From Thermoprotei archaeon (GTDB taxonomy: Archaea > Thermoproteota > Thermoprotei > Gearchaeales > WAQG01): a DNA stretch of 32,000 bases. Position numbers and translations under genes: made by a program. The DNA lies in the NCBI GenBank assembly GCA_038881895.1, contig JAVZOV010000002.1:316397-348396 (forward strand), in the 5' to 3' direction. Below, piece by piece: positions 9,513 through 17,518 of the stretch (position 1 is its first letter; each line of letters starts with the position of its first letter). A model generated the notes under the pieces. That model was not told where the DNA came from. It did no database searches and saw only the letters and a list, made by a program, of their open reading frames with translations.

Positions 9513-9821
9513 TTATCCTCCGTGTACTACGGAAATTATTGTGATAGTGTCGTTATTTTTAAGTGGAGTGCTAAGGTACTGTAAAAGTCTGTAATCAACT
9601 TTATTTATTAATATGATTATGTCAGATTCTATCTCGTTATTCTTAAACAGTCTTTCTTTGAACGATGCGTTTTTCGTTTTTACTAGTTTTTCTAGAAGAT
9701 TTTTTAGTGTTGAGTTTTCTGGGATTTGGATTATTTCATGTTTTGTACCTGCTAGGGCTCCTATTACACCATAGTATTCTATCTTAATTGTTATCTCATT
9801 GATATTCATAACATGCTTCAT
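9513..9821 (-). CDS. MoaD/ThiS-family beta-grasp small protein with C-terminal Gly-Gly (sulfur carrier / ubiquitin-like modifier)
   Basis: About 100 aa, ending in NNDTITIISVVHGG-stop, which matches the MoaD/ThiS/SAMP C-terminal pattern (D-x-V-x-I-x-P-P-V-S-G-G-like). Overlaps the upstream gene stop. Confidence 0.65.
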   Translation of the reverse strand: MKHVMNINEITIKIEYYGVIGALAGTKHEIIQIPENSTLKNLLEKLVKTKNASFKERLFKNNEIESDIIILINKVDYRLLQYLSTPLKNNDTITIISVVHGG

Positions 9822-10602
9822 CTTTTACCTCATTTTCATAAATACATGGCCTTGGTATATATTTAACTAGTCTATTAGAAAGCTGCTTGGTCACTAATGC
9901 TTCAAGCGAGGAAAAATCTTTATTATTTTTTAATAATTCTAAATCAATGTTTACATTATATACCCTGGCTGGAAATACATGACATGTTGATTTGTGTGGA
10001 AAAAGTTGATTCTTGAGAGCGTTTTCTTTTACGTCTTGTTTAGAAATATTTTTACCAGTAAAAAATAACATATTAGGTTTAATTATCGATGATCCCAATA
10101 ATAGGGAATCTTCTCTAATGTATTGGATTGTTTTTTTCATTTGTACTAGTTCATTTTCAATCAATCTTACTATTTTATAACTTTGTAGGGAATCAATTTC
10201 TTTATTATTAATAAAAATTTCATCACTATATAGCATTACTAATTTTACACTGTTTTTTACTTTTTCAAAGATGTTTTTGCTTATTTTTTCGAGTCTAAAT
10301 TTGGATGCTAATCGTACTACTATTTCTCTATCTTTTATTTCTGATGAGCGCCACCACCGTAATATTTTTATTGATGGATCGTCGTATGAAACATAAATAA
10401 CCGGTATAAATTTTAATCCTAGTATAAAAGCAACTTTGTGTCTGTGCATTCCATCAAGTATTATGTTTGTTTGTTTATCTACGATTATAGGATGTCTGAA
10501 CATTTTATTTTGGCTAACTTGGTTCATCAAGTTTGTTACCATTTCTGGTATTGTTTCTTCGTGAGGTTTTAGAGCAGAGATTGGAGCTATAGAGACTTCC
10601 AT
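9796..10602 (-). CDS. ParB/Srx-fold domain protein (possible free serine kinase SerK-like enzyme)
   Basis: N-terminus ISALKPHEETIP...HPIIVDKQTNIILDGMHRHKVAFILGLKFIPV matches the ParB-N/sulfiredoxin-fold signature (DGxHR). The ORF track starts at a TTG at 10638; I prefer the ATG at 10602 (MEVSIAPISALKPHEE). Confidence 0.6.
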   Translation of the reverse strand: MEVSIAPISALKPHEETIPEMVTNLMNQVSQNKMFRHPIIVDKQTNIILDGMHRHKVAFILGLKFIPVIYVSYDDPSIKILRWWRSSEIKDREIVVRLASKFRLEKISKNIFEKVKNSVKLVMLYSDEIFINNKEIDSLQSYKIVRLIENELVQMKKTIQYIREDSLLLGSSIIKPNMLFFTGKNISKQDVKENALKNQLFPHKSTCHVFPARVYNVNIDLELLKNNKDFSSLEALVTKQLSNRLVKYIPRPCIYENEVKDEACYEYQ

Positions 10603-10656
10603 TATAAAACCATTGTGATCCAAAACATGAGGCGACAATCATAACCACCTCTTAAT

Positions 10657-10759: not shown

Positions 10760-13006
10760 TCACAGTTCATGTGATGTTCGTTCTATGACAGAAAGTCTAG
10801 TGTCGTCATCAGATATAAATTGATAACCATTCTCTACATTCGCATAATAAATTAAATATTTGCCTCTAGCACCGCATACAGGACATGTTTTCTGGATTCC
10901 GACACTTAATCTTTTGCATGCCATACAAAAAACAAAATTTTTGTTATATTGAAGTATGTTAACATTATAGGATGGGAATGTTCTGGATAAGTGATTCATT
11001 ATTGTTTCTGGTGATGAAATTTCGTCATCTAACCATACTTTTACGGCGTGACCACCAGATAAAAATGGATCTACTTCTGAATCTAAAGTTATTAAGTCTT
11101 GTATATCAATAATTCTCCATTCTTCTATTAATCCATTCGAATATTTTCCAGGCTTTGTTCTTGTCATTAGTATACTGTAGTATTTTGGATAGAGTTTTCT
11201 GTCCAGCATTGAAAATCTGTATGCCGGTTCGTCTCTTATATTTTGGGCAAGTAGTATTTTTAAACTCTCTTGTTCGGAGTATTCTCTAATAATTTTGTTA
11301 ATCTCGTTGAGTATTTTAATTAACAACGATCGCGATGATGGTGTGGAAAAATAATCGTGATCTGTTAAAAGAAGTATTGCTTCATACAAACCAATTGGTG
11401 TGATTATATGGAAGATATTATCATTATTTATGTATAATGTTCCCTTATATTCATGTAATGTGTAGGGTAAAGTCTCATTTTTTATCATTAATTCTAGCAA
11501 GTTATTCTTAGATGCAGCAATTTTTACAGCAGACCTTATTATATCTCCAATAAAGTTTGGTAATGTATTTTCATTTAAATCACTTTTCATAACTAACCTA
11601 GGCATATTGATTGCTGTAACCGATGCTATGTCATATTGTGAGGAATCATAATGAGAAAGTGCAACTCTATAAAGATCATTAGTGTAAATAGTATCCAGTA
11701 ATGATGACCTCAGCTTATTAATAAAAGTAACCGTATAACCTGATAAATTAAGTTTTATTGCATTCATCAGATTATTTTTTGAATCATCACTCAGAGATTC
11801 TACATAAACATGTATGATTGGAAGAATAGGAGGCCTACCATTAGAATTAAGTTGCAATAGTGCATTAATGAACGCATTAAAAACACGGTGAGCCTCATCA
11901 ATATATTCATTAAGAGTATGAATTGTACCATTTATTTTGATCTCCAGATTTTCGAATCCCTTAGGTAGATCTGTATGTAAACCTAAAGATACTGTTAATT
12001 TGTTTCTCCATATGAATACATTATTTATGTTATAAATAAAGTGAATAAAATATGTTACTAGTTCGTTATCAGGAATATTTTTTGTATAAGGAGCTAATAA
12101 GAAATTGAATAATGGTAATGATTGGCCACCAGAAACTTCCTGATCAAAGTTATATAGCATATACATAATTCTCATTAACGCATTATTAAGAGACTTCATT
12201 CCATTTGATGGTAAAAAAAGATTCATATCATCAAATTTATAGTTTAATAGTATGTACATGTCATGATTTATATTAACAGTAGACAATGACCACTCATCAA
12301 GATCTATAACATGTAAATCACCAGAGGAGTGTGCATCTGAAAGATCTTTAGAAAGAAGTCTTAATAATGTGTAGTCTCTAAGCATTGATGAACTAAGTTT
12401 ATAGTGTATGAGCCTAGGGTTCTTTATTTTTCTTTCATTACCAAATATTATCTGATGCACATCATGAACTGGTAAACCTAACCTCATGACCTGTAGGCGA
12501 ACGTCATCTAATCCTCTTTCAACAAGAATAGAATTCACCAGCTCTCTTATGAATGCAGATGTGAGATATTTTATAGGCATTTTGCTAAGTCTGAGCTCTG
12601 CTTCTCTTGCTATATCCTCTGCAAGACTCCTCGGCAATTTTGCCTCTTTAATTAATGAGCTAACAATTTTTTGAGCATCAAACGGTTCTAATGCTGGTCT
12701 CGATGTTCTTACAAGAAGTTTTGAATACTTAATTGAGTATTCTATTTCATTAATAAGCTCTAAGATTTTGCGTCCTAATCCTGTCAATATATATTCTCCT
12801 GTCTCTAAATCTTTATCGATTAATCCATGAGACTGTAACATTCTTATATGATAACTTAAGTTGCTTGTTTCTTCCTGTCGCAAATGGAGTTTTTCTTTTA
12901 TTTCAGAGAAACGTAAAGATCCATATGAACCTAACAACTTAAGTATCTCAATGCGCTTCCCTTCACTAACAATCCCAAATATGTTATATTCAATATGCCA
13001 CGGCAT
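10760..13006 (-). CDS. wHTH (ArsR-like) + ATP-cone + class III ribonucleotide reductase (NrdD)-like protein lacking catalytic cysteines
   Basis: N-terminus RIEILKLLGSYGSLRFSEIKEKL...LSYHIRMLQSHGLI (winged helix). LLVRTSRPALEPFDAQKIVSSLIKEA...FIRELVNSILVERG (ATP-cone). DAHSSGDLHVIDLDEW (NrdD-type motif). C-terminal ribbon CMAC-x10-CPVC. Only 4 Cys in the whole protein, all in the ribbon. Confidence 0.75.
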   Translation of the reverse strand: MPWHIEYNIFGIVSEGKRIEILKLLGSYGSLRFSEIKEKLHLRQEETSNLSYHIRMLQSHGLIDKDLETGEYILTGLGRKILELINEIEYSIKYSKLLVRTSRPALEPFDAQKIVSSLIKEAKLPRSLAEDIAREAELRLSKMPIKYLTSAFIRELVNSILVERGLDDVRLQVMRLGLPVHDVHQIIFGNERKIKNPRLIHYKLSSSMLRDYTLLRLLSKDLSDAHSSGDLHVIDLDEWSLSTVNINHDMYILLNYKFDDMNLFLPSNGMKSLNNALMRIMYMLYNFDQEVSGGQSLPLFNFLLAPYTKNIPDNELVTYFIHFIYNINNVFIWRNKLTVSLGLHTDLPKGFENLEIKINGTIHTLNEYIDEAHRVFNAFINALLQLNSNGRPPILPIIHVYVESLSDDSKNNLMNAIKLNLSGYTVTFINKLRSSLLDTIYTNDLYRVALSHYDSSQYDIASVTAINMPRLVMKSDLNENTLPNFIGDIIRSAVKIAASKNNLLELMIKNETLPYTLHEYKGTLYINNDNIFHIITPIGLYEAILLLTDHDYFSTPSSRSLLIKILNEINKIIREYSEQESLKILLAQNIRDEPAYRFSMLDRKLYPKYYSILMTRTKPGKYSNGLIEEWRIIDIQDLITLDSEVDPFLSGGHAVKVWLDDEISSPETIMNHLSRTFPSYNVNILQYNKNFVFCMACKRLSVGIQKTCPVCGARGKYLIYYANVENGYQFISDDDTRLSVIERTSHEL

Positions 13007-13108
13007 TGTTCTCTAATAAGAGTATTTTTACCCAAATATAAATTACAACCACGCCAATAACAATGATAGACTATGTAGTACTGAATTAGCTCGCCTGTGG
13101 AGGCAAGG

Positions 13109-14068
13109 TTAATAGGCTAGCTGATACAGCCCTTAAATGAAATGGAATGAAGTTAAACCCAAAGGATAATGAACAACAAACCAATGAAAACATTAAAACA
13201 AGAACCCAACCAACTTTAAACACAAAGAATATTAACTAAAGAGTAGGTGTAACAGATCGATTATTCAACCTGCATTGTTAAATAAGAGAGGCAAGTAGAT
13301 GAAATTCTTCAGAGTCTGAGACCAGAGTTTCCAGTGTTGGGTTCTGGATTAGTAGGAATGCATAGTGAATTGCTATTTTCATTCCTACTTAACCCTTCCC
13401 CCTCAATTAGCTCATCGGGGTCTCTCTGGGTGAACCCTTCTCCCCGCATCTGAAGGTTTAACACCGCTACAATATCCCTATCCATTGTTAATCCGCATTC
13501 TTCGCATCTCATTATCCTGCCCAGATAGGAAGCCATGCTTCCGGAGCAGACTGGGCAGGTTTTAGATGAGTTGGCTGGGTTAACGTATTTGACTAGAAGG
13601 TTAAGCCATTTAAGCTTGTATTCAAGCATGAGTTGGAATGTTCTTGCGCTCCACTTTGAGAGCTTGGGTTGGTGAGCAGTTTTTGAATAGATAGATTTTT
13701 ATAGGCGTTTTGAGTTGATTTTTTATGCCGATATGGGTCCTGCTTCCAATGCGAATAGGACGACAGGCAGGCGGGGAAACTTCCAATGTGCCGTCCTTCA
13801 CCGTTGGCGGCGAAGGCCCTCGAAAGCGTTTGCCGATAGAGGGAAGGGACGAAAATCCATGAATCCCACAACGGTTTACACCCCAGATTGCTGGTTTTGA
13901 GAGACTCGCAACTCTCCCAGAGCTCGTTATCCTATGAGTTATTGCGTTTGGTTCACATTGTAAACATTACCTACCTAGCCGAGCATTTTCTTATATCGTA
14001 TTTATCCTCAGAACATTTAAATACCATTCATTTCATTAAAGTTCCAGATTTTCTGGCTAGCCAATTAA
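13109..14068 (-). mobile_element. Decayed IS200/IS605-family (TnpB-type) insertion remnant, GC-rich relative to its surroundings
   Basis: Contains the TnpB C-terminal fragment. There is a visible jump in GC content around 13300-13950. It is bounded by an imperfect inverted pair, TTAATAGGCTAGC...TTAAATGAAATG at about 13109-13157 versus the reverse complement of about 14014-14068 (TTAATTGGCTAGC...TTTAATGAAATG). Boundaries are approximate. Confidence 0.4.
13309..13898 (-). pseudogene. tnpB: TnpB (OrfB, RuvC-like RNA-guided nuclease family) remnant: intact C-terminal about 129 codons, decayed upstream part
   Basis: The open frame 13698..13309 reads ...KLSKWSARTFQLMLEYKLKWLNLLVKYVNPANSSKTCPVCSG...RCEECGLTMDRDIVAVLNL (zinc finger plus RuvC-III DRD motif). 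An in-frame TAA lies at 13701..13699. Upstream, a different frame gives AFEGLRRQR-stop (RuvC-II-like). No N-terminal two-thirds of the protein is present. Confidence 0.7.
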
Positions 14069-14251
14069 AAACCTAATACAGTGAAATTATAAGAACTAGA
14101 GTAAACTGCAAATGAATTGTCTAAAGAACTTCAGTTCTAAAGGATGGAAGAGAAGATCATTTTATAAAACCATTTCAAGCGACTTACTTTTATCTTAGAA
14201 AAAATCTAGATTTACATTTATTGAGCAAAAAGGTATAAGATTACGAATGAA

Positions 14252-14962
14252 TTACTCGTGAATTCGTCTAAGTGATGTTAAAAGTTTTTCAACGCTATCA
14301 ATTTTAGATAATATTAGTGGTATTTGTTCTATTTCTGCGATTTTTACTGGCAGTTGATCATTAATCTTTTTTGGGCCATGAATTATAACTACCATTGGTT
14401 TTATAGGATATACACGTACAGCTATCATAGGGGAGCGTCCTTTTGATACGTTTGTAAAAATTGCTGCACGTGCTGTTGTTAATCCCATTAATCTAAAAAA
14501 TTCGTATCCACTCATTGATAATATTGCTTTAATACTATCGATCACTGTGTATCCGAAAACAGGCCTTTCAATTAAATGTTTGCCGTAAAGGATATCACCC
14601 TCAACAGCCTCAGCAAAATTTTTTACTGATACTGGGGTGGTGAAATCTTTCATGTCAAGTATGGCATCTGATTCAAACATAAAGCCAGCTATTTTGCTTG
14701 AGATCGGATAGCCTCTTTCACGATCTATGTCTATTAATCCTCTTACGATCTTATCTATAGCCTTTATTCCAGGGAGTCTACGTCCTTGTTCATAATTGCT
14801 TATCACTGGAGGTGGAATTCTGATCTTTCTTGATAGCTCATTTTGTTGCACATTAAAAATTTCTCGCCATTTTCGCAATCCTTTTCCAGGATTTTCAGAT
14901 GTTATAATGTCTCCAGCAATATACATCATGAGATATTTAATGCTCTTTGGCACTGTAGACAT
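14252..14962 (-). CDS. XRE-type HTH transcriptional regulator with a C-terminal domain of unknown function
   Basis: LRKWREIFNVQQNELSRKIRIPPPVISNYEQGRRLPGIKAIDKIVRGL is a classic HTH_3 (Cro/C1) pattern. 236 aa. Confidence 0.6.
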   Translation of the reverse strand: MSTVPKSIKYLMMYIAGDIITSENPGKGLRKWREIFNVQQNELSRKIRIPPPVISNYEQGRRLPGIKAIDKIVRGLIDIDRERGYPISSKIAGFMFESDAILDMKDFTTPVSVKNFAEAVEGDILYGKHLIERPVFGYTVIDSIKAILSMSGYEFFRLMGLTTARAAIFTNVSKGRSPMIAVRVYPIKPMVVIIHGPKKINDQLPVKIAEIEQIPLILSKIDSVEKLLTSLRRIHE

Positions 14963-15117: not shown

Positions 15118-15732
15118 TCATGTTCCTTTTACAATATAAACTAAGGAATCTGCGATATATGTTGCATGATCGGCTATACGCTCTAAATAACGTAATATCA
15201 ATAGTGACGTTATATCGCACAGAGGATTATTAGTGTGAATTGCTTTTTTGAATGCTTCTTCGTATATTTTGTCTATTTCATCATCTTTTTCGTATATTAA
15301 ATGTGTAAGTTCTACATTTCTCAATATAAACGCTTTTATAGCATCTCGCATCATTGTAATAACAATTTTCGAGGCATTTTTTATTATTTCTTTGTCGCAT
15401 TCAGAAATTGCCCCTACATCACCTAGTATGACTGCTATATCGTAAGAATATCGCCCAAATCTATAAAAATCGTAAGATATTTCTAATGCAGACTTTATGA
15501 ATCTTAAATCTGATGCTGCTGGCTGATATCTAGCAATGATCTCTACTACTAGTTCTCCAATTTCTTCTTTCATTTGTTTCAGTTGTTGAGCCCGTTTTAA
15601 AACTTCTTCTTTAACATCAACGCCAGACATGAATGCCTCTAAAGATAGGTTAACTGTTTTTTCAGAAAGTGACGCCATTTCACTTAGCATGTTGTTAAGT
15701 CTTTCTAAACCCAATTCTATGAGCCTAACCAT
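15118..15732 (-). CDS. phoU: PhoU-family phosphate signalling/regulatory protein
   Basis: Two PhoU repeats, including ERIADHATYIADSLVYI near the C-terminus. The track ORF starts at 15789, but Met20 (15732) is preceded by GGTGA and removes a non-conserved hydrophobic leader. Confidence 0.8.
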   Translation of the reverse strand: MVRLIELGLERLNNMLSEMASLSEKTVNLSLEAFMSGVDVKEEVLKRAQQLKQMKEEIGELVVEIIARYQPAASDLRFIKSALEISYDFYRFGRYSYDIAVILGDVGAISECDKEIIKNASKIVITMMRDAIKAFILRNVELTHLIYEKDDEIDKIYEEAFKKAIHTNNPLCDITSLLILRYLERIADHATYIADSLVYIVKGT

Positions 15733-15867
15733 AAAATTCACCGTCAAATTAATACAAAATAATAAAAAGTAGTTTATAAAAATAACCATCGAAATCTATA
15801 CAAATGTATTTAAGAAATATAGATTAGAAATAAATATATCAAGATATTTTCTCTATTTAGATTTAAT

Positions 15868-16890
15868 ATGTCGTATATAGTTAGACGTGTTCAACTTACA
15901 GGTAAATCAACATTTATTGTTTCATTACCAAAAAAATGGGCATCAGAAATGGGATTAAAATCTGGCACACCAATCATGTTTAGAATTGGTCCAGATGGTT
16001 CATTATTAATTTCTCCAAGCAACATCATAAAAGAAACGCCTATCAGTACAATCGTTGTTGGAGCAGATTCAAACGAAGACATAGTATTCAGAGAATACCT
16101 GGCGCATTATCTAGCAGGTTCAACTGTAATAAAAATAATGTTTATCACAAGCTCTAGTTTACGGTCAATAATAAAAAATTTAATAAGAAATAAGCTTATA
16201 GGAATAGAGATAGTTGAAGAAACTTCAAAGGATATAACAACACAAGTTCTCACAAATCACTCACAACTTCCTCTTCTTAAAGCTATTAACCGAATGCACC
16301 TAATTTCACTCTTTATGTATAAGGATGCACTGGAATCATTAAAAACCCAAAATATAGAATTAGCAAAAGACATAATAGAAAGAGATGATGAAGTTGACAG
16401 GTTTTATCATTTTATAGTAAGACAGCTAAACATGGTAGCATTAAATATATCAACAGTCAAGGATATAGGTCTTAACAAATTATCAGAAGGACTTGAATAT
16501 AGAATAATAGCAAAAAGTATCGAAAGAATAGGGGACCATTCAGCTAGAATCGCCAAATCAATAACCAGAATACTAAAATGGCCAACCACAAACTCATTAG
16601 ATTTGTTAGAAGATTTTGGAAATAGAACAGTTTCAATTTATGAAAAAGTTATTCGAGCTCTTAATAAAATGGATAAAAAGTTAGCACAAGAATTAATTAG
16701 CGACACAAGCTTTATTGCCGATTATGAACAAGATATAACCAATAAACTATTGGAAAACAATACAATACCCACATCCACAATGATAGAACTAAAGCTAATA
16801 ATGGAAAGCATTAGACGTATTGCAGAATATAGCGAGGACATTGCAGAGTCAATTATTAACTTATCAGTTAGTGGGGCCGAGGGGATTTGA
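15868..16890 (+). CDS. AbrB/SpoVT-domain + double PhoU-domain regulator
   Basis: N-terminus RRVQLTGKSTFIVSLPKKWASEMGLKSGTPIMF (AbrB-like swapped hairpin). Two PhoU repeats with ERIGDHSARIAKSI and RRIAEYSEDIAESI. The last about 19 nt overlap tRNA-Trp on the opposite strand. Confidence 0.8.
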   Translation: MSYIVRRVQLTGKSTFIVSLPKKWASEMGLKSGTPIMFRIGPDGSLLISPSNIIKETPISTIVVGADSNEDIVFREYLAHYLAGSTVIKIMFITSSSLRSIIKNLIRNKLIGIEIVEETSKDITTQVLTNHSQLPLLKAINRMHLISLFMYKDALESLKTQNIELAKDIIERDDEVDRFYHFIVRQLNMVALNISTVKDIGLNKLSEGLEYRIIAKSIERIGDHSARIAKSITRILKWPTTNSLDLLEDFGNRTVSIYEKVIRALNKMDKKLAQELISDTSFIADYEQDITNKLLENNTIPTSTMIELKLIMESIRRIAEYSEDIAESIINLSVSGAEGI

Positions 16891-16994
16891 ACCCCTGGCT
16901 TCCGGGTCTCCCCTATATCATCCCAAATCCTCATCGGATAGTCAACGCTCCAATAACTGGAGCCCGTCGCCATACCTGGCTAGGCCACGGCCCC
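16872..16994 (-). tRNA. tRNA-Trp (anticodon CCA) with a 49-nt intron after position 37
   Basis: The minus strand reads GGGGCCG-UG-GCCUAGCCAGGUAUGGC-G-ACGGG-CU-CCA-G, then the intron UUAUUGGAG...GGGGAG, then A-CCCGG-AAGCC-AGGGG-UUCAAAU-CCCCU-CGGCCCC-A. The acceptor and T arms pair perfectly. The intron UGGAG pairs with the anticodon-loop CUCCA. No CCA end is encoded. Confidence 0.85.
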
Positions 16995-17390: not shown

Positions 17391-17518
17391 GGGGCCGCCA
17401 GCTTTGCGGCTTTCGCAGGCCCTCGCGGAGCCTACTACTAGCCGCAACGGAGGGCGGTTTAACTTCCGAGTTCGGAATGGGTTCGGGTGAGACCCGCCCC
17501 CTATGGCCGGCGTACCCC
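17391..17518 (-). rRNA. rrf: 5S ribosomal RNA (not linked to 16S/23S in this window)
   Basis: The minus strand reads GGGGUACGCCGGCCAUAGGGGGCGGGUCUCACCCGAACCCAUUCCGAACUCGGAAGUUAAACCGCCC...GCUGGCGGCCCC. It carries the conserved CCGAACUCGGAAGUUAA core and has pairing termini. Confidence 0.85.

Follow-up and report, generated by a model that had tools for sequence, protein, structure and literature searches.

A catalytically dead relative of anaerobic ribonucleotide reductase, fused to a winged helix and an ATP-cone-like domain, as a candidate nucleotide-responsive transcription factor in archaea

The gene described here lies on the minus strand of a 32,000-nucleotide stretch of contig JAVZOV010000002.1 from a Thermoprotei archaeon (assembly GCA_038881895.1), which we call the window, and its product joins an N-terminal winged helix-turn-helix (wHTH) and an ATP-cone-like domain to a large body homologous to NrdD, the class III (anaerobic) ribonucleotide reductase (RNR). 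The thiyl-radical cysteine, the second active-site cysteine and the glycyl-radical motif of NrdD are lost throughout the family to which this protein belongs, not merely in the window protein. We consider it probable that the protein is a non-catalytic descendant of class III NrdD that has turned into a dimeric, nucleotide-responsive transcription factor, and that it is a functional analogue, not a homologue, of the bacterial repressor NrdR. Public records label members of the family "anaerobic ribonucleoside-triphosphate reductase", and no published description of the family was found in the literature searched.

Domain architecture and fold

The open reading frame (ORF) is intact, begins with ATG and encodes 748 amino acids (aa), with the domains laid out as listed in Table 1. 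In Pfam searches, the N-terminus matches both DUF7347 (PF24038; residues 9-85, 30.5 bits against a cut-off of 27.6, E=4.3e-07) and the ArsR-type HTH_5 (PF01022; residues 17-65, 22.5 bits against a cut-off of 22, E=1e-4), and HTH_20 also matches the N-terminal 80-90 residues. A profile of the family searched against the PDB retrieved ArsR-family HlyU 3jth and 5znx for this region with E of about 3e-4. We generated an AlphaFold2 model from 30 family sequences (predicted local distance difference test, pLDDT, 80.4; predicted template-modeling score, pTM, 0.74), in which helices at residues 16-28, 33-39 and 44-59 are followed by a beta wing at residues 63-74. With family models above their cut-offs and a helix-helix-helix-wing topology, the domain belongs to the ArsR/SmtB-type wHTH group. 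From that topology, residues 45-58 are presumed to form the recognition helix, a segment that reads RDAGKFAYHLRxL in Bathyarchaeia-type relatives.

The body of the protein matches the Pfam NRDD model (PF13597) over residues 190-715 with 171.6 bits (E=3.6e-50), as against 488-638 bits for the canonical NrdDs encoded beside family genes in the relatives' loci. On the NCBIfam NrdD equivalog model TIGR02487 it reaches 158.5 bits, far from the cut-off of 326.35, and on this score the protein is best taken as related to NrdD yet not as an NrdD itself. The family profile retrieved P. copri NrdD (8p23) from the PDB with E=6.8e-39. When the predicted structure was compared to the PDB with Foldseek, the 36 best matches were class III RNRs only, from P. 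copri, S. thermophilus, T. maritima and T4, with target-normalized TM-scores of 0.56-0.75 (0.7-0.75 for T. maritima and T4) and E=3.5e-25 for P. copri 8p23; pyruvate formate-lyase and the class I R1 subunits ranked far lower. Both the sequence and the fold thus place the body within the NrdD/glycyl-radical-enzyme barrel group. A first-pass annotation made from the DNA letters had staked its reading on homology to NrdD, which the sequence profile and the Foldseek match uphold, and the order of wHTH, ATP-cone, NrdD-type body and CxxC-x10-CxxC ribbon that it proposed is recovered by Pfam and the model, with the ATP-cone falling just below the Pfam cut-off.

Loss of the catalytic residues

Our alignment of 88 family members includes, for comparison, 23 canonical NrdDs from the same loci; the roles of the residues are those of the P. 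copri enzyme, in which Cys416, Cys171, Gly711/Tyr712, the HxHD motif that binds the substrate triphosphate and the NxN flap have been described (PMC11226230). Three cysteine columns, those of the second cysteine on the barrel strand and of the finger-loop pair, are 100% Cys in the 23 canonical proteins and 0-1% Cys in the 88 family members. The second-cysteine column on the first barrel strand holds Cys in 0% of the family as against 100% of the canonical NrdDs, and the window protein has Asn245 in the place of P. copri Cys171 and T4 Cys79. At the finger loop, the canonical RSMCCRLR or QCCA aligns with IYTNDLYRV, which has no counterpart of the thiyl-radical cysteine (P. copri Cys416, T4 Cys290); the "GC" of the S. 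thermophilus sequence MGCRSF aligns to insert states of the family profile, and the tip of the loop is variable across the family.

The C-terminus, which reads ...IYYANVENGYQFISDD..., is similarly altered. The canonical SR[IV][VT]GY aligns with ANVENGY, out of register and missing its arginine, such that no R-[IV]-x-G-Y motif is found; the column of the glycyl-radical glycine is kept by alignment in 8 of the 88 members, and about 18 of the 88 end just before it. Of the HxHD motif, 90% or more of the family keeps the first histidine (H232), and the second is gone. The place taken by ENANM or ENSNM, the flap sequence of the canonical neighbors, is filled by a linker with the consensus RLGLPV[YH]D, in which R175, L176, G177, L178, P179 and V180 are invariant. 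The region of the P. copri specificity-site residues (Asn298, loop 2) aligns only weakly with the family.

What the family does keep is the C-terminal zinc ribbon of NrdD, all four cysteine columns of which are 100% Cys in the 88 members. Those of the window protein, at 694, 697, 708 and 711, are its only cysteines, just as the first-pass annotation had counted them, and its further points that the glycyl-radical motif lacks an arginine and that the finger-loop cysteine is lost agree with the alignment. Several other NrdD motifs survive as well (AH.SG..H, GxQ....FN..LAP, INxPR, R597 and D602), and the motif DAHSSGDLHVIDLD begins at residue 224. One could take these survivors as a sign that the protein is still an enzyme, with a chemistry that uses neither a thiyl nor a glycyl radical. 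However, the glycine and all three catalytic cysteines have been lost, the tip of the finger loop varies across the family, the members that end early lack the glycyl-radical domain altogether, and RNR chemistry that does without a thiyl radical is not known (PMC8463856), all of which makes a surviving enzyme highly improbable. The protein fails four defining NrdD catalytic features and therefore should not be filed or annotated as an RNR.

Distribution of the family and selection

We scanned GTDB, one genome per species, with two signature peptides of the N-terminal module, the linker RLGLPVHDV serving as a signature pattern. Relatives are encoded in at least 384 species-level archaeal genomes, mostly Bathyarchaeia, with further members in Nezhaarchaeales, Methanomethylicia, Culexmicrobium, Hecatellales and several Asgard lineages; complete genomes are among them, and the enrichment-culture organism Ca. 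Bathyarchaeum tardum carries a member. A profile of the N-terminal module retrieved 207 clusters at 50% identity (E<=1e-30), nearly all of 560-800 aa. The short matches of this search (160-500 aa) may be contig-end fragments rather than stand-alone proteins of a wHTH and an ATP-cone. The phyletic spread of the fusion, which had been named as a point to check, is accordingly broad.

Bathyarchaeia relatives about 25-30% identical to the window protein share its wHTH, ATP-cone and NrdD architecture. Between the window clade and distant relatives the N-terminal module is 39-45% identical, while the core of the window protein has a median identity of 23% to other family members and 20% to canonical NrdD; the regulatory head is therefore the best-conserved part. 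Closer at hand, orthologues 71-88% identical, intact and in the same synteny are present in at least five other assemblies. Against four of these, the ratio of nonsynonymous to synonymous substitution rates (dN/dS) is about 0.08 (range 0.08-0.12), and among the segments it is lowest in the ATP-cone and linker (0.03), with 0.05 in the wHTH, 0.04-0.08 in the zinc ribbon and tail and 0.09 in the core, indicating strong purifying selection on the gene, in all four segments (0.03-0.10).

The missing catalytic residues, and nothing beyond them, would suit a decaying pseudogene or a misassembled nrdD. We rejected this candidate, for which the chance appears negligible: the ORF of 748 codons is intact, its orthologues are found across assemblies, the cysteines are lost family-wide, dN/dS is low and the family spans hundreds of species. 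The possibility raised at first pass, that this is merely a decaying copy of a gene with catalytic orthologues, falls with it, as the loss of these residues is a feature of the family at large (88 members aligned).

Gene neighborhood in relatives

Neighboring ORFs in the relatives' loci were labeled with phmmer, using seeds with Pfam annotation, and counted over the 53 loci whose downstream sequence extends for 3 kb or more. In most of these relatives the family gene stands directly upstream of canonical nrdD operons or beside pyrBI. A canonical nrdD lies within 1 kb on the same strand in 20 loci, as nrdD-nrdG or glutaredoxin-nrdD; a convergent pyrB lies within 1 kb in 18, with pyrI divergent from pyrB; and either nrdD or pyrB/pyrI lies within 1 kb in 40 of the 53. 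When members are grouped into clusters at 50% identity, pyrB/pyrI neighbors occur in 10 of 18 clusters, one Asgard genome included, and nrdD neighbors in 3 of 18. The NrdDs encoded next door are true NrdDs, with CC finger loops and RxxGY motifs. A gene for a UMP (uridine monophosphate) kinase-like protein and thyA were each found nearby in single cases.

The canonical genes have features of their own. In the main Bathyarchaeia clade the canonical NrdD has a YQCCAY finger loop and its gene always has a small glutaredoxin-like gene in front (L005 12481-14988, L017, L019, L024, L030 and about 10 more loci); a type named NrdD3, with a YQCCAY finger loop, is reportedly discussed by Burnim et al. 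No nrdG adjoining the YQCCAY-type nrdD was detected in those loci with the NrdG of L002 as seed. A separate clade (L002, L029, L054) has an MCC-type nrdD followed by nrdG. One canonical NrdD of 1173 aa (P0035) carries an intein-like insertion of about 470 aa after its PTRVGFQS motif (alignment columns ~410-880). Finally, one locus with the family gene, pyrB/pyrI and archaeal-type gene content (L014, DATKLC010000012.1) is labeled "Candidatus Krumholzibacteriaceae bacterium" and is probably a mis-binned contig.

A palindrome in the promoters of the family gene and nrdD

A search for cis-elements over the relatives' loci, 1.33 Mb in total, revealed an AT-rich palindrome, STTTAA-N4-TTAAAS, found in its 16-bp form as CTTTAATTTTTTAAAC, which in the main Bathyarchaeia clade is nearly confined to the family gene's own promoter and that of the adjacent nrdD. 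The 13-mer TTTAATTTTTTAR, with at most one mismatch, has 64 occurrences; 23 of them precede a family gene and 18 precede the adjacent grx/nrdD, and the remaining occurrences are close to the chance level, about 20 by a hand estimate from base composition. Before the family gene the 13-mer typically sits 51 nt ahead of the ATG, as ATACTTTAATTTTTTAAACTAG. The perfect palindrome TTTAA-N4-TTAAA occurs 24 times, with 14 occurrences inside the 200 bp upstream of a family gene (about 1.3% of the sequence searched) and a further 3 upstream of nrdD. In both promoters the element has another box, TACAGAWTTTTATAC, ahead of it. The L002 clade carries the element in reverse orientation 157 nt upstream of nrdD, separate from the TATA-like sequence of nrdD itself, and the element is therefore not simply a TATA box.

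In many Bathyarchaeia loci a divergent tRNA-Pro gene stands directly upstream of the NrdD-like gene (L012 61-138, L036 9744-9821, L066 9774-9851, L084, L086, L087, L044, L049 and L064), and the candidate operator therefore lies in the intergenic region between the tRNA and the regulator gene. The grx-nrdD clade also encodes, 0.2-3 kb upstream, a 429-aa paralogue with a DUF7347/ArsR-type domain and an unassigned C-terminal stretch of 350 aa (L005 8555-9844 and other loci, 11-13 in all).

Proposed function and alternatives

As outlined above, we favor a transcription factor that responds to nucleotides. The NrdD-like body would dimerize as class III RNRs do, and the dimer would present its two winged helices to a palindromic operator over the TATA box and transcription factor B recognition element (BRE) region, where binding would repress the gene itself and genes of nucleotide metabolism. 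Adenine nucleotides would bind the ATP-cone-like domain, and (deoxy)nucleoside triphosphates, (d)NTPs, could possibly bind what remains of the specificity or substrate sites in the body, with the resulting shift in conformation or oligomeric state altering the affinity for DNA. In the lineage of the window the gene would have become separated from nrd and pyr genes. The adjacency to nrdD and pyrBI in relatives, together with the palindrome held in common with the adjacent nrdD promoter, lends support to the analogy with NrdR that had been drawn from the window sequence.

The ATP-cone-like domain is divergent, and its residues were compared to the nucleotide-contacting P. copri residues Lys7, Arg8, Tyr83, Arg87 and Arg91. 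Arg8 corresponds to Arg100 and is kept; Tyr83 corresponds to Val169 in the window protein and to Tyr in most family members; and E107, F109, I114, T149, R154 and R170 are invariant in the family, as is R175. In the relative P0033 the domain scores 37.6 bits on the Pfam ATP-cone model, which is above the cut-off.

Nevertheless, a number of observations weigh against this interpretation. Both DNA binding and ligand binding by the family protein are properties that we infer. In the window protein the ATP-cone match (PF03477, residues 99-168) reaches 24.1 bits, just below the cut-off of 25.8; P. copri Lys7 corresponds to Val99, so that the lysine of the Lys-Arg phosphate clamp is missing; and the beta-hairpin of the domain is modeled with a pLDDT below 50. 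The palindrome is largely limited to one large Bathyarchaeia clade and a few other loci, is AT-rich and in most loci overlaps a probable TATA box, and another factor could bind it, the nearby 429-aa DUF7347 paralogue being one possible binder. As pyrB is convergent with the family gene, the two do not have a promoter in common, and no motif common to the family promoter and the pyrB-pyrI intergenic regions was seen by eye beyond a generic BRE/TATA-like AAATAACTCTTTT. The window clade, moreover, has no nrd or pyr neighbor within the 32-kb window, and neither of the Bathyarchaeia-type elements TTTAATTTTTTAR and TACAGAWTTTTATAC was found near the gene in the window; the function proposed for the window protein is therefore extrapolated from relatives 25-30% identical to it.

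Some of these points would suit a transcription factor in which the NrdD body acts solely as a dimerization scaffold, or senses redox state or a metabolite, the ATP-cone no longer binding adenine nucleotides. The sub-threshold ATP-cone with half of its Lys-Arg pair, the half-lost HxHD motif, the replaced NxN flap, and a window locus with a protein disulfide oxidoreductase and a Urm1/SAMP gene but no nucleotide-metabolism neighbors all fit such a protein. It is harder to reconcile with the ATP-cone and linker being the most constrained segment, with the many invariant residues that align with ligand-contacting positions of canonical cones, and with the association of the family specifically with nrdD and pyrBI. 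We regard this alternative as doubtful.

A non-catalytic partner of a true class III RNR, which would form a heterodimer with NrdD or titrate NrdG or effectors and use its winged helix for protein contacts, strikes us as distinctly unlikely. Such a role would make sense of the same-strand nrdD directly downstream in 20 of the 53 loci and of the retained overall fold, and class III RNRs are obligate dimers whose monomers communicate with each other (PMC11226230). However, the nrdD neighbor is confined to 3 of the 18 clusters, the window clade not among them, the core is only about 20-25% identical to canonical NrdD, the N-terminal domain is a bona fide ArsR-type wHTH, and a specific palindrome is common to both promoters.

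Within the preferred reading of a nucleotide-responsive transcription factor, a bolder form can be put forward tentatively. An entire allosteric RNR subunit would have been "fossilized" into a transcription factor, with the a-site (the ATP-cone) and what is left of the s-site and the substrate site all binding nucleotides, so that the balance of NTPs and dNTPs would be read at several sites simultaneously. It would directly control nrdD and pyrBI in Bathyarchaeia, other Thermoproteota and Asgard archaea, would have rewired targets in lineages like that of the window, and would be the missing archaeal counterpart of NrdR.

Comparison with known systems

Compared to class III NrdD (T4, T. maritima, P. 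copri, S. thermophilus), the family is homologous over about 530 residues and has the ten-stranded barrel and several structural motifs in common with it. Both also have a CxxC-x10-CxxC zinc ribbon at the C-terminus and, at the N-terminus, an ATP-cone that occupies the same place. The family differs in having no thiyl-radical cysteine, second cysteine, RxxGY motif or NxN flap and just half of HxHD, in its extra N-terminal winged helix, in its NCBIfam score (158 versus 326 bits) and in having no NrdG near it in the window.

Bacterial NrdR acts through NrdR boxes at nrd promoters, where it represses in response to ATP/dATP. The features of the NrdR repressor used for comparison are those given in PMC9110341 and PMC12176259. 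NrdR is a small protein with an N-terminal zinc ribbon and an ATP-cone (PMC12176259). The proposed logic of our family would be similar, with an ATP-cone joined to a DNA-binding domain, a gene located close to or at nrd genes, and probable autoregulation through operators that overlap the promoter. The NrdR architecture is, in contrast, not what is found: the DNA-binding part is a non-homologous wHTH of ArsR type, it is followed by a dead enzyme body of 550 aa, the zinc ribbon is C-terminal and derived from NrdD, and in a protein of 748 aa the ATP-cone is the only element in common. The candidate element STTTAA-N4-TTAAAS is also unlike the NrdR box, and the family is archaeal, whereas NrdR is rare in archaea (PMC9110341).

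With ArsR/SmtB regulators such as HlyU (3jth) the family has its N-terminal 80-90 residues in common, through HTH_5, HTH_20 and DUF7347. ArsR/SmtB dimers typically bind inverted repeats. Proteins of the ArsR family are of about 100-120 aa and sense their ligand in the wHTH dimer, unlike the present family, where the wHTH heads a multidomain protein of 748 aa. PyrR, a regulator of pyr genes with a phosphoribosyltransferase fold, keeps its catalytic activity and binds RNA. It resembles our family in that the fold of a metabolic enzyme has become the sensor of a regulator of that enzyme's own pathway; our family, by contrast, has lost catalysis and acquired a separate DNA-binding domain.

As NrdR is rare in archaea (PMC9110341), the transcriptional control of RNR is all but undescribed in these organisms. 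The family is a concrete candidate for such control, being widespread, usually situated beside nrdD or pyrBI and provided with a candidate operator in its main clade. In evolutionary terms it would be a clear case of the catalytic subunit of a radical enzyme converted to a regulator with its allosteric domain kept. The public label of RNR, for its part, would lead metabolic reconstructions to assign a class III RNR to genomes in error, inferences of oxygen tolerance included.

The window locus and its promoter

Across the window and four orthologous loci (L001, L008, L088 and L089), the only long conserved block upstream of the gene is the TATA-like block GTAATTTATATTTGGGTA, 23-40 nt upstream of the ATG, which would correspond to a TATA box with its BRE. 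Allowing up to three mismatches, the clade's form of this block, GTAATTTATATTTRGGTA, was found in the window at the gene's own promoter and in one further three-mismatch match of chance level, and therefore no regulon can be derived for the window lineage. No NrdG-like ORF of the radical S-adenosylmethionine type was found anywhere in the window by phmmer with an NrdG seed or by Pfam scans of the neighboring ORFs, in line with the earlier remark that nrdG is not adjacent, and besides the NrdD-like gene's own homology the window holds no RNR or pyrimidine-synthesis gene.

Table 1. Positions in the window of the gene, its domains and residues, its promoter block and its nearest neighbors.
Feature	Position	Strand	Evidence
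Whole gene: winged helix, ATP-cone-like domain, dead NrdD body and zinc ribbon	10760..13006	-	ORF, Pfam, dN/dS
Winged helix-turn-helix, residues 9-85 (DUF7347 / ArsR-type HTH_5)	12752..12982	-	Pfam, profile vs PDB, model
Presumed recognition helix EETSNLSYHIRMLQ, residues 45-58	12833..12874	-	Alignments; helix 44-59 in model
Divergent ATP-cone-like domain, residues 96-175	12482..12721	-	Pfam, mapping to P. copri NrdD
Linker RLGLPVHDV, residues 175-183, replacing the NxN flap region	12458..12484	-	Alignments
NrdD-like ten-stranded barrel body, residues 190-715, without catalytic residues	10862..12439	-	PF13597, NCBIfam, Foldseek, profile
HVID, residues 232-235, half-degenerate HxHD relic	12302..12313	-	Alignments to P. 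copri NrdD
Asn245, replacing the second catalytic Cys (P. copri Cys171, T4 Cys79)	12272..12274	-	Alignments
Finger-loop relic LLDTIYTNDLYRVALS, residues 436-451, no thiyl-radical Cys	11654..11701	-	Alignments
Zinc ribbon C694-x2-C697-x10-C708-x2-C711	10874..10927	-	Translation, alignment
YYANVENGYQF, residues 720-730, glycyl-radical loop relic without RxxGY	10817..10849	-	Alignment
Conserved TATA-like promoter block GTAATTTATATTTGGGTA	13029..13046	-	Upstream alignment
MBF1-like HTH_3 protein	14252-14962	-	Pfam
TnpB C-terminal fragment	13309-13629	-	Pfam PF07282
SerK/ParB-Srx-like ORF	9796-10638	-	NCBIfam
Urm1/SAMP gene, overlapped by the SerK/ParB-Srx-like ORF	9513-9821	-	

Directly upstream of the NrdD-like gene is the gene of an MBF1/EDF1-like HTH_3 protein of 236-240 aa with an uncharacterized C-terminal half. 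The window clade and distant lineages, Culexmicrobium among them, have it in this position (L001 9094-9804, L003 9210-9932, L023, L047, L050 and L077), and it may be a conserved partner or reflect conserved synteny only. Between the two genes lies an ORF of 106 aa whose only match is to the TNB domain from the C-terminus of TnpB/Cas12f-like proteins (PF07282, E=7.8e-18); it resembles an IS200/IS605-type remnant inserted there. The intergenic stretch, 13007-14251, is 1245 bp long, versus about 60-200 bp in the four orthologous loci, which keep the synteny of the window and have no TnpB fragment.

Downstream of the NrdD-like gene, an ORF of 280 aa with no Pfam match appears to be a distant relative of the ADP-dependent serine kinase SerK and of the SbnI and ParB-Srx fold (NCBIfam E=3.6e-14, far under the cut-off). 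Its 3' end overlaps a Urm1/SAMP-like ubiquitin-fold gene, and the pair lies downstream of the NrdD-like gene in all five window-clade loci. Other neighbors in the window are the protein disulfide oxidoreductase, a thermosome subunit, PhoU-type genes, and ribosomal and RNA polymerase genes. The window has no tRNA according to ARAGORN; Rfam placed a 123-nt tRNA at 16872-16994 on the minus strand, of a length that suggests an intron, and a 5S rRNA gene at 17393-17514 on the same strand. The PhoU-domain genes are two divergent genes at 15118-16890, one of them fused to a DNA-binding domain of the AbrB/MazE type, and they are conserved in the orthologous loci.

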